Virus record (IMG/VR): IMGVR_UViG_2667527898_000012
Span: 1-4,205 of that record
Reading direction: 5' to 3' (one strand)
From: a virus
Lineage: Duplodnaviria; Heunggongvirae; Uroviricota; Caudoviricetes
Length of the DNA: 4,205 nucleotides
Of this stretch, positions 1 through 4,205 are shown piece after piece. The translations under genes and the position numbers were made by a program. Numbering within the stretch: the stretch's first letter is position 1; every line of letters begins with the position of its first letter. The notes below the pieces were generated by a model. That model was not told where the DNA came from. It was given only the letters and a program-made list of their open reading frames with translations, and ran no database searches.

Positions 1-2712
1 GGCAATATAAAGGCGTCCGTCCTGCATCTTCTGCAGCTTCACCGCCCACATGCTGTTCAGGTCATTACGGGTGTCCGTCTGCACACGCTGGATTTGCTGT
101 ATGGTGGCGCTCTGGTCCTCCAGCGTTTTACTGACCGTCTGTGTGATTTCATTGCGGGTTTCGGTGATGGTGGTCTGCATTTCCGCCATCTCGTCCTTCA
201 GCTGACTGTTGTCAATCTCTGCCCACAGCGCCTCTGCCAGATGCGTTTTTCCTATCTTTTCCCGGAAAAGTTCCAGATAGCCCGCAGCATCATTGCTCGC
301 CCGTCCACTGGCTTCCACAAAAGCAGATTTACCCACCAGGTTGACGCTGCGCACATAAAACCAGAAATCCTTTCCGGGCTTAATGTGCGGACCGGAGACA
401 CTCCACTGACTGCCGGTCCCCAGATAACGGGCAGAGGTTTCCACCTGTGCGGCGTCTGCAATTTTTGCCTCCGAAAACCAGAACTCAAACTGCACCGTCG
501 GGTCATAAATGGTCAGTTTCGGGACTGCCGTTATCTGAAAATACCCCGGCGTCAGTTCAACACCGGCAGGCGCTGCCGGTGCGTTAATCCGGAACGTGGT
601 GGTGGCGGGTTCGCCCTGCTGGCCATAGCTGTTAATCGCCCTGACCGTCAGGGTGTATTCCCCGAGAGGCAGGCCACTGAAACGGTGCTCCGTATCGGCA
701 GTGATGGCGGTGGTCAGCAGGCGGCTGTTCTCACCGCTTCCACTGGTCAGGCGCAGACTGAAGCGCACGCCCTTCACCACCCTCGGCGTGTCCCATTTCG
801 CCAGCGCCAGATACTGGCTGTCAGCTGCGCTCACCTCCACCGTCAGGTGCTGCACTGCCGGTGGGATAACGCTGTTCAGGGTGCCTGACTGCGGCTCAAA
901 GCGGGCTCCGTTATCCACAATGGCTTCTTTTTCCGGTACGTGCTGCACTGCCGTGATGGCAAAGGTGCCGTCCGTGTTTTCCCGGATGGAGACACAGCGG
1001 AACAGGCGACGGCGCAGTGACGGCAGGGAGAGTCCCCACACCCCGTATGTCTCCACACCATCAGGCAGGGTACTGACCTGTATCCGGTCCGGCGCGGGGT
1101 GTGCGGTGATGTCCACACTCACCGGCTTACCGCTGCCGTTAATCAGGTTCACCGTCGATGTACCTGTCCCCGGAAGTGTCACTTCACGGTCCAGCGTCAG
1201 GGTGCGGGTGGCAGCATCAATGGACAGGACACGTCCGCCGGTCAGGGTTCCGGCATAGTCGTTATCACAGATTTCAATGATGTCACCGGGTGTGTGCCGC
1301 AGCCCCTGTGACCCGAGTGTGAAATCCACCGTCTGCGTTTCCAGCAGTTCTGTCTTTATCACCCACAGCCCGGCACGGTGGGCCTGACCGCGACTGGTGC
1401 AGCCGAACGCATCCATCTTCAGCAGGTTGCGTCCGTAGCGCAGTATGGCTTCCGGGTCTTCCACCAGTTCCGTGGAGGTCTGCCAGCCGTTCTGCGGGTC
1501 GGTGTAATTCACCTCCACCGCCGTGTGCCGGTCCTTCAGGGCACTGAAGCTGTAGCGGAACCCCACGCCGTTATCATCCACCACCACATCGCTGTTCGTG
1601 TACGGCCACACCACATCCGACTGGCGGTCCTGAACGAACGTCAGCGTCTGGCCGTTCCATACCGGCATACAGCGCATCGCCGAGCAGAAATCACTGAGAA
1701 CGTCCCACGCCTTACGCTGTTGTGCCAGGTACGCATTAAAGGTCATCCGCGGCTCTGTGCCCCCGAAACCATCCGGGACCGTCTGGTCGCAGTACTGCCC
1801 GATGGCATACAGCGCCCACTTGTCCACATCCGCCGCCCCCAGACGTTTTCCCATGCCGTAGCGCGGGTGAGTCAGCATGTCCCACAGACACCAGGCCGGA
1901 TTGTTACTGTATGCCGGTTTCAGACTGCCGTCCCAGATACCACTGTACGTGCGTTTTTCCGGGTCATAGTTTGACGGCACCTGGATGATGCGACCGCGGA
2001 TATGGTAGTTCACCGTCATCTGCTGGCCGCCGAACTGCTCCGCATCCACCTGCAGCCCCACAATGGCCGTGTTCGGGTAGCACTGTTTCACATCGATAAT
2101 TTCGGTGTATGACGACCAGAGCGTCTTATTCTGCAGCTGGTCCGTGGTGCTGTCCGCCGTCTCCCTGACCATCCGGATGTTAAAAGGACGGGGAGGCAGA
2201 TTATCCAGAATCACCGACGCCAGAAACTGCGAGGTGGTCTTGCCGTTAATGGTGACATCCTTTTCCGTCATCCATTTACCACCACGCTCAAGCTGAATCA
2301 GCAGGCGGACAGACGTCGGGTTACGGTCACCCTTTGACGTGGTCTGCACCAGTGACTGCACCCCGAAGGTCACCCGCAGGCGGTCAATGTTCGCGGACGT
2401 AATGGTGCGCGTCACCGGTTTTGCCTTCGTCACTTCCACGCCCAGTACAGTTTCAGCTCCGGAGGACTCAAAGCCTTCCGGTGGTGTCTGCTCCTGCTCC
2501 CCGGCGCGCCAGACCGCCGTCACACCGTGTATCACGGGATTACCGTCCGTGTCCGTCAGCGGGGTTTTGTTCACCAGGATACTCTGCAGTCCCTTCACCG
2601 GGCCTTCTGTCGGTCCCTCACCAACCGCATCAGTCACGCTCATCATCTGCGTGGATTTGAGATTATCCTTCGCCTCACGAGGCGTGTGTGCTTTCCCTCC
2701 ACTTTTTCCCAT
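1..2712 (-). CDS. J: Host specificity protein J / central tail fibre (tip attachment protein), N-terminal 904 codons; 3' end lies beyond the window start
   Basis: Hand translation of the reverse complement from ATG at 2712-2710 gives MGKSGGKAHTPREAKDNLKSTQMMSVTDAVGEGPTEGPVKGLQSILVNKTPLTDTDGN... and runs to position 1 with no stop (checked in consecutive 60-nt blocks; frame = codons ending at multiples of 3). The N-terminus and many internal blocks (e.g. NKTLWSSYTEIIDVKQCYPNTA, WCLWDMLTHPRYGMGKRLGAADVDKWALY, RCVSIRENTDGTFAITAVQHVPEKEAIVDNGA, TPGYFQITA...YDPTVQFEFWFSE) match what I recall of phage lambda J. SD-like GGGAAGG sits 4 nt upstream of the ATG. Absent from the ORF track only because no stop occurs in-window. 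Confidence 0.95.
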   Translation of the reverse strand, partial: MGKSGGKAHTPREAKDNLKSTQMMSVTDAVGEGPTEGPVKGLQSILVNKTPLTDTDGNPVIHGVTAVWRAGEQEQTPPEGFESSGAETVLGVEVTKAKPVTRTITSANIDRLRVTFGVQSLVQTTSKGDRNPTSVRLLIQLERGGKWMTEKDVTINGKTTSQFLASVILDNLPPRPFNIRMVRETADSTTDQLQNKTLWSSYTEIIDVKQCYPNTAIVGLQVDAEQFGGQQMTVNYHIRGRIIQVPSNYDPEKRTYSGIWDGSLKPAYSNNPAWCLWDMLTHPRYGMGKRLGAADVDKWALYAIGQYCDQTVPDGFGGTEPRMTFNAYLAQQRKAWDVLSDFCSAMRCMPVWNGQTLTFVQDRQSDVVWPYTNSDVVVDDNGVGFRYSFSALKDRHTAVEVNYTDPQNGWQTSTELVEDPEAILRYGRNLLKMDAFGCTSRGQAHRAGLWVIKTELLETQTVDFTLGSQGLRHTPGDIIEICDNDYAGTLTGGRVLSIDAATRTLTLDREVTLPGTGTSTVNLINGSGKPVSVDITAHPAPDRIQVSTLPDGVETYGVWGLSLPSLRRRLFRCVSIRENTDGTFAITAVQHVPEKEAIVDNGARFEPQSGTLNSVIPPAVQHLTVEVSAADSQYLALAKWDTPRVVKGVRFSLRLTSGSGENSRLLTTAITADTEHRFSGLPLGEYTLTVRAINSYGQQGEPATTTFRINAPAAPAGVELTPGYFQITAVPKLTIYDPTVQFEFWFSEAKIADAAQVETSARYLGTGSQWSVSGPHIKPGKDFWFYVRSVNLVGKSAFVEASGRASNDAAGYLELFREKIGKTHLAEALWAEIDNSQLKDEMAEMQTTITETRNEITQTVSKTLEDQSATIQQIQRVQTDTRNDLNSMWAVKLQKMQDGRLYIA

Positions 2713-2716
2713 CCAC

Positions 2717-2723
2717 CCTTCCC
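2717..2723 (-). promoter_or_regulatory. Shine-Dalgarno-like element GGGAAGG for J
   Basis: Minus-strand sequence CAGGGGAAGGGTGG precedes the J ATG; the purine-rich core ends 4 nt before the start codon (short but plausible spacing). Confidence 0.4.
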
Positions 2724-2815
2724 CTGAAAAAATTATCCGCCACTTGCCATTCCGTACAGAAGTCGGATATCCTTCGCCCGAAAAGCATGAAACACATTTC
2801 TGCCATGCTAAACAG

Positions 2816-2850
2816 AAACCCCGGTATCAGCAGATACCGGGGTTTTCTTT
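2816..2850. terminator. Perfect 13-bp hairpin AAACCCCGGTATC-AGCA-GATACCGGGGTTT flanked by A-tract and U-tract; candidate bidirectional intrinsic terminator
   Basis: Arms at 2816-2828 and 2833-2845 are exact reverse complements around a 4-nt loop. Downstream is TTTTCTTTC on the plus strand and TTTCTGTTT on the minus strand. Located about 100 nt upstream of the J start codon. Confidence 0.5.
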
Positions 2851-2917
2851 CATGCCAACCGATAATCCTGTTGGTTAAAACCGGTAATGGCATAAAAATT
2901 CTGAATATCTTCACATT

Positions 2918-2945
2918 TTCACACACTGACTGTGGCGCTTATAAT
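2918..2945 (+). promoter_or_regulatory. Candidate sigma70 promoter: -35 TTCACA (2918-2923), 16-bp spacer, -10 TATAAT (2940-2945); A/T-rich stretch upstream (2889-2910)
   Basis: Read directly: -35 matches consensus at 5 of 6 positions, -10 is a perfect TATAAT, spacing is 16 bp. It faces away from J and towards I, i.e. antisense to the tail operon. Predicted transcription start near 2951-2953. Confidence 0.5.
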
Positions 2946-2951
2946 TTCGCT

Positions 2952-3050
2952 GCGTTAGTGTTTTTTTGCCCGAGTAACAAAAACAACTCCTTAACATTAA
3001 TCTTCATTTGTCTGTCCCCGCAGCTCCGCGATCACTGCGGGATTTTTTTA
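2952..3050 (+). ncRNA. Putative prophage-encoded small RNA (about 100 nt) between promoter and intrinsic terminator; possible Hfq-type sRNA or anti-sRNA
   Basis: Promoter at 2918-2945 and terminator at 3017-3058 bracket about 100 nt with no ATG and no ribosome-binding site. A GTG at 2958 opens a frame but lacks an SD and the frame runs on through the terminator. The segment includes a U7 run (2961-2967), a CA-rich stretch AACAAAAACAAC (2976-2987, four consecutive A-R-N triplets), and a 3' GC hairpin plus U-tract. Coordinates of the 5' and 3' ends are estimates. Confidence 0.45.
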
Positions 3051-3058
3051 TTCTTTTT
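3017..3058 (+). terminator. Rho-independent terminator on the plus strand: stem CCCGCAG (3017-3023) / CTGCGGG (3035-3041), 11-nt loop, then ATTTTTTTATTCTTTTT
   Basis: Perfect 7-bp GC-rich inverted repeat immediately followed by a long T-tract on the plus strand only; on the minus strand the stem is preceded by A's and not followed by U's. The U-tract overlaps the stop codon of I (3057-3059). Confidence 0.6.
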
Positions 3059-3737
3059 ACCCCTGCCGCCCGATAACCACGACCTTTCCGCACCCGCCTT
3101 CATCACGGGTACTGATGTCCTGGGATATACGGCGGGAGCCAACCAGCATTTCCCCGTAAGGCACCGGCATCGGGTTACCCTGGGCAATCATGTTGTCCAG
3201 TGACGAAAAATACGTGTTCTGTCTGCCGTTATCCGTTGCGCGGTAATCCGGTGTTTTTGCCTTCGGGGCCAGCATCTGGGCCACACCACCCAGAATCATG
3301 CTGGCCCCCAGTGAAAACAGCATCGTGGTGGCAGAAAAACCGCCGGCACTCAGGGCTGTACCCCATAACGCCATCGAGGCACCGGCAGTGAGGAAAGAGC
3401 CCACGATGGCTGCCGCCCCCAGCACAATCTGAAGTCCGCCCTTTCCGGCCCCGGCCAGTCGCGGCACAATATGGATAACCGTTCCCTCACCCAGTGGTTC
3501 GTGAAGGCGGGCATACACCGCCTCCGGTGCCGTATCCTCACCGGCAATGCGTATCTGGTACCAGCCTTCGTTCATCTGACGGCGAAAGCCCGGCACCTGC
3601 AGCGACAGGGCGCGGATGGCTTCCGCCGCCGTGTTCACATACAGGCTGAAGCGGCGGCCAAATCGTTGTAAATCCCCGTGAAGGCAGATGCGTGCCAGTG
3701 GCGGTGACGCCAGACAGAATGCGTTCGTCGTTGCCAT
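3057..3737 (-). CDS. I: Tail assembly protein I (tail tip assembly), 226 aa
   Basis: ORF-track protein MATTNAFCLASPPLARICLHGDLQRFGRRF...GASMILGGVAQMLAPKAKTPDYRATDNGRQNTYFSSLDNMIAQGN...VVVIGRQG resembles lambda gpI as I recall it, including the Gly/Ala-rich hydrophobic central segment. Stop TAA at 3059-3057 confirmed by hand. Lies between K and J in the lambda gene order. Start at 3737 is inside the K reading frame. Confidence 0.93.
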   Translation of the reverse strand: MATTNAFCLASPPLARICLHGDLQRFGRRFSLYVNTAAEAIRALSLQVPGFRRQMNEGWYQIRIAGEDTAPEAVYARLHEPLGEGTVIHIVPRLAGAGKGGLQIVLGAAAIVGSFLTAGASMALWGTALSAGGFSATTMLFSLGASMILGGVAQMLAPKAKTPDYRATDNGRQNTYFSSLDNMIAQGNPMPVPYGEMLVGSRRISQDISTRDEGGCGKVVVIGRQG

Positions 3738-4205
3738 TTTTCGGAATACCTCTCCCGTTTACTCAGTTGTTCAGGCAGATGGTGAAGCAGTTCACCGTTG
3801 CCGCAGTAAATGGCGGCATGATTAGCCACCGATGCGCCGAAGCAGCACAGCAGGATATCGCCCGGCAGTGCAGAGGACAGGGGCACCCGGTAAAAGCCCG
3901 TTTCCTCCATATTGTCCAGGTAAAGGTTCTGACCGTTGCACCACCAGTCATCCTCACGGTGAAAATCCGGCATATCAATGCCTGCCAGATGGTATGCATC
4001 CCGGAACAGCGTGTAACAGTCCGTCACCCCGTGCGCAAAGCGCCGTCCCGTCAGGTGCGGAACGCAGCGGAATTTGTGAATGTCACCCCGGCTGACCAGC
4101 CACCAGGGCAGTGCGCTTTTTATCTGCAGCCGCCGGTCGGCCTCGCTCAGCCAGGGCAGTCCACCGGGATGACTGTGGACCAGTGCCACAATCTCCCCCT
4201 GCATC
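3635..4205 (-). CDS. K: Tail assembly protein K (MPN/JAMM metalloprotease-like plus NlpC/P60 cysteine peptidase-like domains); 5' end truncated by the window edge
   Basis: In-window protein contains the JAMM signature H-x-H-x7-S-x2-D (HSHPGGLPWLSEAD) followed by an NlpC/P60-like Cys...His...His arrangement (GVTDCYTLF ... ANHAAIY ... LLHHLP), the two-domain layout known for lambda gpK. The frame is open to the last base of the window, so the true start is upstream of 4205. It overlaps the I start by 103 nt in a different frame, which matches the lambda K/I overlap as I recall it. Confidence 0.9.
   Translation of the reverse strand, partial: MQGEIVALVHSHPGGLPWLSEADRRLQIKSALPWWLVSRGDIHKFRCVPHLTGRRFAHGVTDCYTLFRDAYHLAGIDMPDFHREDDWWCNGQNLYLDNMEETGFYRVPLSSALPGDILLCCFGASVANHAAIYCGNGELLHHLPEQLSKRERYSEKWQRRTHSVWRHRHWHASAFTGIYNDLAAASACM

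Follow-up and report, generated by a model that had tools for sequence, protein, structure and literature searches.

Between the tail genes I and J, phage lambda has a gap of 60 bp (NC_001416; I ends at 15444, J starts at 15505), whereas in the DNA considered here, a window of 4,205 nt from a tailed-phage genome (IMG/VR record IMGVR_UViG_2667527898_000012), the same two genes stand 344 bp apart. What fills the enlarged junction, and does it act on its own? A sequence-only reading, whose lambda coordinates are correct, had taken it for one inserted cassette, an independently transcribed moron. The present analysis favours a composite, with a probability of roughly 0.88, in which an I-proximal module of 168 bp is a small RNA (sRNA) moron carrying pasB and a J-proximal module of 176 bp is a lineage-specific hairpin leader.

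The I-J junction and its coding potential

The window genes all lie on the - strand and follow the lambda order K, I, J. The 3' part of K (3635..4205), annotated as a C40 family peptidase at homologous loci, is cut by the window end and overlaps I by 103 nt, as in lambda. Gene I (3057..3737, from the ORF list) encodes a protein of 226 aa, annotated as a tail assembly protein at homologous RefSeq loci, and the 5' part of J (1..2712), the tail tip or host specificity gene, annotated as J or tail tip protein at such loci, runs off the left end of the window. Reading from its start codon at 2712..2710, J begins MGKSGGKAHTPREAKDNLKSTQ... and translates as MGKSGGKAHTPREAKDNLKST..., with a homologous N-terminus in lambda J. 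A search of the 38 open codons upstream of this ATG for an in-frame ATG, GTG or TTG found none. Because the I ORF ends where it does and no alternative J start lies upstream, the spacer is exactly 2713..3056.

The GC content is 0.588 for the J part and 0.597 for the I and K part but falls to 0.43 in the spacer (0.47 in its left half and 0.39 in its right half), with a sliding minimum of 0.373 at 2851-3000. The 4.2-kb window holds three sigma-70-like sites, compared with 1.4 +/- 1.1 in shuffled sequences, and all three are within the spacer, as are two strong hairpins with U-runs, at 2816-2845 and 3017-3041. The compositional drop from about 0.59 in the flanks, and the claim that the spacer has a promoter and terminators of its own, are therefore both borne out, the predicted promoter, the best of the three sites, being an 11/12 match to sigma-70 and the terminators two in number, each a hairpin followed by U residues.

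In the moron concept of Juhala and Hendrix (Juhala et al. 2000), extra DNA of lower GC content lies between conserved genes, has its own promoter and terminator and is expressed from the repressed prophage. The classical form is protein-coding, a small ORF equipped with a promoter and a terminator of its own, and several features might suggest one here: a + strand frame is open across the whole spacer (a 171-aa ORF, 2688..3203), small - strand ORFs of 22-83 aa occur within it, and in relatives this very junction is the site of sodC, a protein moron. That the window spacer is itself of this form is nevertheless exceedingly improbable. The open + frame is found only in a type-A/long-type subset, the commonest, 343-bp spacers and all short ones interrupting it, indels between alleles are not multiples of three, and the 171-aa ORF would run through a promoter, an sRNA and two terminators. 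Pfam returned no family for two of the ORFs and, for a third, a chance-level match (E = 0.077) below the cutoff. Because no ORF is conserved, the spacer is read as an sRNA moron and not a protein moron.

The relatives with sodC are nonetheless informative about the site. In four fetched loci the I-J gap is 851 bp long and holds a Cu/Zn sodC gene (Pfam Sod_Cu, E = 4e-32) in the orientation of pasB, followed by its own terminator and then by pasB-like sequence; the hexamers of the pasB promoter are missing from these sodC-type spacers. Because sodC sits there too, the I-J junction genuinely hosts morons, in support of the general idea from which this analysis started. Like lambdoid protein morons such as sodC, the window spacer adds low-GC DNA to a row of conserved late genes and brings a promoter and a terminator along, but its cargo is RNA where theirs is protein.

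The pasB gene in the I-proximal module

When 43 unique spacers were compared with the window spacer by BLAST, homology to every other spacer type began at about 2889, and short-type spacers aligned only from spacer position 177-180 on. This comparison, together with the alignment, delimits a right module of 168 bp (2889..3056, + strand), the pasB cassette, which consists of an A/T-rich upstream region, a promoter, an sRNA and a terminator, and which is transcribed antisense to the tail operon. PasB was described as an 83-nt sRNA of prophage PP6 of enteropathogenic E. coli (EPEC) E2348/69, located at NC_011601 1466343..1466261 on the - strand between E2348C_1436 and E2348C_1437 with the directionality '(> <) >' (Pearl Mizrahi et al. 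2021, PMC8550237, Table S6). In the E2348/69 record this interval, which begins 5 nt past the I stop, has the tail assembly gene on one side and gpJ on the other.

Window positions 2967-3049 are identical to E2348/69 PasB at 81 of 83 nucleotides, the two substitutions, A for C at 2994 and A for G at 3000, falling in the body of the RNA, and the published Northern probe, AATCCCGCAGTGATCGCGGAGCT, is the exact reverse complement of window 3022-3044. The two loci also share the I-J position, the antisense orientation, the distance from the I stop, the predicted promoter and the terminator; they differ in the rest of the spacer, which in E2348/69 is 240 bp long with a short, unrelated J-proximal module in place of the long 176-bp module of the window. 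On this match the I-proximal half of the spacer is identified as the known gene pasB, and the moron is accordingly of a known kind, an element already in the literature and not a new one. The other description of PasB surveys its distribution and notes that it lies within a phage operon for structural proteins (Zhu, Shabalina and Storz 2026, bioRxiv 10.64898/2026.05.13.724894).

For the E2348/69 allele, both size and Hfq-dependent stability of PasB were confirmed on Northern blots, the RNA being lost in an hfq mutant (PMC8550237). Expression was higher in the non-activating condition, and PasB ranked high in RIL-seq, with 37 Hfq-mediated interactions but no target motif reported (PMC8550237). 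The DESeq2 log2 fold changes given are -6.8 and -2.4 (PMC8550237). Among the first of the RIL-seq pairs tabulated, one is of the sRNA class, pasA-IGR::pasB, and a GcvB-PasB pair under the activating condition is not among them (PMC8550237). These experiments concern the EPEC E2348/69 allele; by analogy, we infer the same behaviour for the window copy, together with its transcription start, promoter and seed.

The predicted pasB promoter (2918..2945, + strand) consists of a -35 element TTCACA at 2918-2923, a 16-nt spacer and a -10 element TATAAT at 2940-2945. Nearly all alleles keep the TTCACA and a TATAAT-like -10 (TATAAT, AATAAT, TATCAT or GATAAA). From the geometry of this promoter, the primary 5' end is predicted at about 2952, giving an RNA of 98 nt, but the E2348/69 annotation maps to an 83-nt transcript at 2967..3049 on the + strand, with a 5' end 15 nt farther downstream. 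The mismatch may reflect either processing or imprecise mapping of the start. At the predicted 5' end, the hexamer GCGTTA (2952-2957) occurs in all but two of the alleles, those two having GAGTTA, and a U-run is also kept. This comparison drew on 29 distinct alleles, of which 15 diverse ones were used for RNAalifold and the structure alignment.

Downstream of these 5' elements lies an A-rich (A-R-N)5 tract, AGUAACAAAAACAAC (2973..2987, + strand), a putative site for the distal face of Hfq by the ARN motif definition of PMC4104026; a run of at least three ARN repeats occurs in 27 of 29 alleles despite changing sequence. The sequence CUCCUU at 2987-2992, which could pair with Shine-Dalgarno sequences, comes just before a nearly invariant core, UUAAUCUUC (2997..3005, + strand), present in 29 of 29 alleles and unpaired in both folds. 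Its conservation and single-strandedness make this core the likely seed of PasB; the published survey places the seed directly upstream of the terminator (bioRxiv 10.64898/2026.05.13.724894). The intrinsic terminator itself (3017..3049, + strand) has a 7-bp stem (3017-3023/3035-3041), an 11-nt loop, an A and then seven U residues (3043-3049), and it ends 7 nt before the I stop codon. Its seven pairs are essentially invariant among the 15 diverse alleles, while its loop varies in both length and sequence, as does the stretch between the U-run and the core. RNAalifold on these 15 alleles gave the terminator as the only structure, with no compensatory pairs, and single-sequence folds of PasB were no better than those of shuffled sequences (z -1.8 and -1.1).

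This layout, with an ARN site for the distal face of Hfq, a U-rich 3' end for the proximal face and a single-stranded seed, is by its sequence that of an Hfq-dependent, trans-acting sRNA. In a lysogen, where the late operon is silent, host RNA polymerase would start at the near-consensus sigma-70 promoter (2918-2945), transcribe the + strand antisense to the tail operon and stop at the intrinsic terminator (3017-3049), yielding an RNA of about 83-98 nt. The (ARN)n tract and the hairpin with its U7 3' end would bind Hfq, and UUAAUCUUC would base-pair in trans with host and prophage mRNAs. On the late mRNA, the J-proximal module would terminate or insulate by means of its hairpin and would give J a structured 5' leader.

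PasB could act mainly in cis instead, pairing as an antisense RNA with the late I-J mRNA and causing its cleavage, or interfering with it by convergent transcription, and in this way tune J and tail-fibre expression or tighten lysogeny. Its position is fixed and antisense at one syntenically stable junction, whereas other Pas sRNAs are found in mosaic contexts (bioRxiv 10.64898/2026.05.13.724894), and PasB is complementary to the late transcript over its full 83-98 nt. Such a principal role is nevertheless rather unlikely, given that the 37 Hfq-dependent chimeras with other RNAs in E2348/69 are typical of trans-acting sRNAs, that PasB does not overlap the J ribosome-binding site, some 250 nt away in the window spacer, and that the body of the RNA varies among alleles as expected for trans seeds. 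Moreover, because a cis-antisense RNA matches its own template whatever its sequence, the conserved core suggests that more than antisense pairing constrains the sequence. One mode of action does not preclude the other, and a cis effect in addition to action in trans is possible.

Non-coding morons with short Hfq-binding products have precedents in lambdoid prophages, namely AgvB and AsxR, which also contain ARN motifs (PMC4104026) and, like PasB, combine a conserved 3' terminator part with a variable 5' part. They differ from PasB in locus, sitting in the convergent sRNA pair downstream of PR', beside stx or moron genes and not at I-J, in being shorter (51-60 nt) and in having no sequence or model similarity to it. 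A guess that the + strand RNA was AgvB, made from a CA-rich stretch, was ruled out by the location of AgvB downstream of PR' and by the lack of an Rfam match: the AgvB and AsxR models (RF02702 and RF02703) matched nothing in the window at E<=1, although the same search found both in Sakai. A search of the whole window against all of Rfam 15 at E<=1 likewise gave no match.

The J-proximal module

The remaining 176 bp of the spacer (2713..2888) form the left module, of the long type, which is structured and includes the J ribosome-binding site. Its fold z-scores are -5.2 on the + strand and -4.3 on the - strand. At its centre, a repeat search identified a perfect inverted repeat whose 13-bp arms enclose a 4-nt loop (2816-2828/2833-2845), which on both strands folds with -27 to -30 kcal/mol. 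The hairpin is followed by U-runs, UUUUCUUU on the + strand and UUUCUGUUU on the - strand, and because they occur on both strands it looks like a bidirectional terminator.

Lambda, the short-type spacers and the long-type spacers each have a GC-rich hairpin with a late-strand U-run just upstream of J. Since lambda and the short spacers have one as well, a hairpin leader before J appears to be the ancestral feature and the long module a variant of it; the long left module thus replaces the short hairpin leader found before J in lambda and other relatives. A + strand U-run is found with the long-type hairpin only, those of the short type and of lambda lacking it. In sequence, the left module is unrelated to the 70-95-bp modules of E2348/69, BP-4795 and Sakai, and a search for distant homologues found none in phages and, in E. 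coli, only matches that are 95-99% identical.

Such matches occur at 1694 places in 1446 of 5426 E. coli genomes (about 27%), 8 sequence variants were seen among 50 long-type loci, and all 80 IMG/VR loci that contain the hairpin have it in the I-J context. A full-text literature search with two hairpin sequences, as DNA and RNA and on both strands, returned no papers. Most likely, the module has two roles on the late mRNA, as a hairpin that terminates or insulates and as a structured leader 5' of J.

Could the left module instead be a second, undescribed + strand sRNA gene in tandem with pasB? A candidate RNA of about 72 nt (2780..2851, + strand), hypothetical as yet, would comprise a 5' hairpin (2784-2809), an A-rich, (ARN)3-like linker and the stable GC-rich terminator hairpin with its UUUUCUUU tail, a shape resembling that of an sRNA (-29.9 kcal/mol, z -5.9). 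A promoter-like site upstream, TTGCCA-18-TATCCT (2744-2773, + strand), would drive it, the + strand U-run is peculiar to the long type, and the left module is nearly invariant even between genomes that differ by about 18% in their pasB alleles. Several points speak against it. The promoter-like site is weak, with a poor -10 (TATCCT) and 9/12 matches overall, and such sites arise by chance; the conservation may reflect recent spread; the hairpin is terminator-like on the late strand too, and likewise in lambda; and the candidate has neither an Rfam family nor a literature match for its hairpin sequence. A second sRNA here is therefore rather unlikely, and the preferred reading remains a hairpin leader of J.

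Reassortment, distribution and the wider pasB family

The notion of a single inserted cassette stands only in part, because a promoter and terminator unit is present in the I-proximal 168 bp alone and the 344 bp consist of two independently reassorting modules. The long left module is joined to pasB allele A at 12 loci and to allele B at 35, the short left module to alleles A, B, C and D at 15, 9, 3 and 2 loci, respectively, and the sodC-type left module to allele B at 3 loci; left and right modules reassort independently. No direct repeats that might represent insertion scars flank either module. The sole notable direct repeat, the 11-mer TATCCTTCGCC at 2664-2674, inside J, and at 2768-2778, is unable to bracket an insert because the repeat pair spans the J start, and the I-side boundary is undefinable because the I alleles themselves differ, the window protein sharing about 66% amino acid identity with lambda-type I proteins (65.8% with that of Lambda_4A7).

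A survey of presence and absence upheld the claim that extra DNA lies at this junction in some related phages only. Among IMG/VR loci whose I protein matches that of the window at 96% identity or more (window-type I), the gap is 234-851 bp and a pasB-like segment is present in all 78 scorable of 80 loci, always antisense, directly after the I stop and at the I-J junction. In loci with a lambda-type I, the gap is 59-60 bp and pasB is present in 0 of 80. Three other lambdoid phages have I-J gaps of 60, 122 and 41 bp. Thus the related phages differ in the presence of extra DNA at one junction, and the DNA deviates in base composition, as does a moron; its own promoter and factor-independent terminator belong to the right module only, and protein-coding cargo is lacking. 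As a moron the spacer is of the non-coding, sRNA kind only, a sense in which the literature already uses the word. What holds of the independently transcribed moron first proposed is an AT-richer cassette without a counterpart in lambda-type phages; its cargo is the non-coding pasB and not a protein gene.

Of 5426 complete E. coli genomes, 1814 contain the 168-bp cassette, at 5545 places in all, at 60-100% identity and with up to 11 copies per genome. In the phage collection the cassette occurs in 147 records and a window-type I, here at 80% identity or more, in 131, and these similar counts indicate that the cassette co-occurs with one group of I alleles. A scan of genome contigs gave just 4 loci, three of them in implausible hosts, and so added nothing on phylogenetic breadth.

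The family may already have been encountered in E. coli O157:H7 Sakai. Three Hfq-CRAC peaks, EcOnc22, EcOnc23 and EcOnc24, assigned to prophages Sp15, Sp14 and Sp11, respectively, are mutual homologues of about 85 nt on Northern blots and are destabilised without hfq (Tree et al. 2014, PMC4104026, Table S2). The I-J spacers of Sp15, Sp14 and Sp11 each measure 240 bp in the current record of the Sakai genome (NC_002695.2), and the sequence of the Sp15 spacer contains a pasB allele. After a genome-version shift of about +142, calibrated on the AgvB and AsxR Rfam matches in that record, all three peaks fall inside pasB homologues. By this coordinate conversion, EcOnc22-24 are very probably members of the pasB family. 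They resemble the window pasB in being antisense to tail genes within the I-J spacer and in having the same core and terminator stem, but they are divergent alleles of type D/C, with about 75-82% identity to the window cassette. Neither paper on the Pas sRNAs (PMC8550237; bioRxiv 10.64898/2026.05.13.724894) mentions a link between PasB and EcOnc22-24.

At the lower identities of 60-82%, the pasB family takes in alleles that differ in body but share the promoter, (ARN)n tract, core and terminator. A more speculative view, to which we give a low probability, treats the left module as more than leader DNA, being either another, undescribed Hfq-type sRNA gene next to pasB or an insulator or regulatory leader by which J is controlled. 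If this were true, the junction would carry a non-coding moron of two genes, and pasB would be one allele of a far larger family, with types A to D and including EcOnc22-24, than BLAST-based surveys have reported.

With copies in a third of complete genomes, pasB ranks with the most widespread of the sRNA genes that E. coli prophages carry. The pasB region is unannotated in nearly all matching RefSeq genomes, and because it has neither an Rfam 15 nor a RefSeq/PGAP annotation, genome scans will go on finding it anew as an odd, AT-rich interval of the tail operon. The remaining interest of the locus lies in the long module and in an allelic breadth beyond BLAST-based surveys, and the basic picture is unchanged: the I-J junction is a multi-use moron site, occupied by pasB alone, by pasB with a long structured module, or by sodC with a promoter-less remnant of pasB.

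Variation in the spacer and its boundary with J

Within the left, J-proximal module of the I-J spacer (2713-2888), the window shows six differences from the consensus of the remaining long-type copies, namely at 2713, 2716, 2729, 2736, 2813 and 2857. No complete E. coli genome carries a 100% match to the window spacer, the best reaching 98.8%. Together, these sequence comparisons indicate that the window comes from a prophage variant absent from the RefSeq complete-genome set.

The 11-nt sequence TATCCTTCGCC is present twice, as an exact direct repeat: at 2664-2674, within the EAKDN codons of the J coding sequence, and 104 nt away at 2768-2778 in the left module. By chance, about 0.04 such repeats would be expected in this stretch. 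The repeat can be ruled out as an insertion scar, because the start of J lies between the two copies.

On the late strand, the 60-bp I-J gap of lambda (NC_001416 15445-15504, corresponding to 1446-1505 of comparison locus L004) has a GC-rich hairpin with a U-run after it, directly upstream of the ribosome-binding site of J. The short spacers (1920-1996 of comparison locus L003) share this arrangement. In every spacer type examined, a terminator-like hairpin before J is conserved.

The start of gene I

RefSeq homologues of I (L002, L003 and L169) are annotated by PGAP as 582-nt genes of 193 aa that abut K. In the window, the full open reading frame of I (3057-3737) encodes 226 aa, and its overlap with K, of 103 nt, is exactly that of the 223-aa I of lambda. 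Many RefSeq records probably place the start of I wrongly.

Relatives of pasB in Sakai and on foreign contigs

EcOnc22, EcOnc23 and EcOnc24, Hfq-CRAC sRNAs of Tree et al. 2014 (PMC4104026), map by their coordinates (with a +142 shift between genome versions) to the pasB homologues that the Sakai prophages Sp15, Sp14 and Sp11 carry between I and J. The loci concerned are NC_002695.2 2902836-2902926 (L170), 2676622-2676861 (L172) and 2166672-2166911 (L171). This equivalence is mentioned in neither Pearl Mizrahi et al. 2021 (PMC8550237) nor the preprint of Zhu, Shabalina and Storz 2026.

Very small contigs from the assemblies of three unrelated organisms also encode the E. coli type of tail protein I, with identities of 91-98%: a 3.4-kb contig of Streptomyces flavalbus (L005), which carries a full pasB spacer of 336 bp as well, a 460-bp contig of Parendozoicomonas haliclonae (L007) and a 3.4-kb contig of a Clostridiales MAG (L008). 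Most likely, these contigs represent E. coli or phage contamination of their assemblies.

Spacers bearing sodC

Spacers of 851 bp, found in three IMG/VR loci (L081, L076 and L048) and in the Clostridiales contig L008, contain a 175-aa Cu/Zn superoxide dismutase gene, sodC (Pfam PF00080, E=4e-32), which is antisense, as is pasB, and has a terminator hairpin of its own after it. Beyond this hairpin lies type B pasB-like sequence that has lost the pasB promoter, so that a pasB-like RNA, if made at all from sodC-type spacers, could arise only through read-through or processing of the sodC 3' end.
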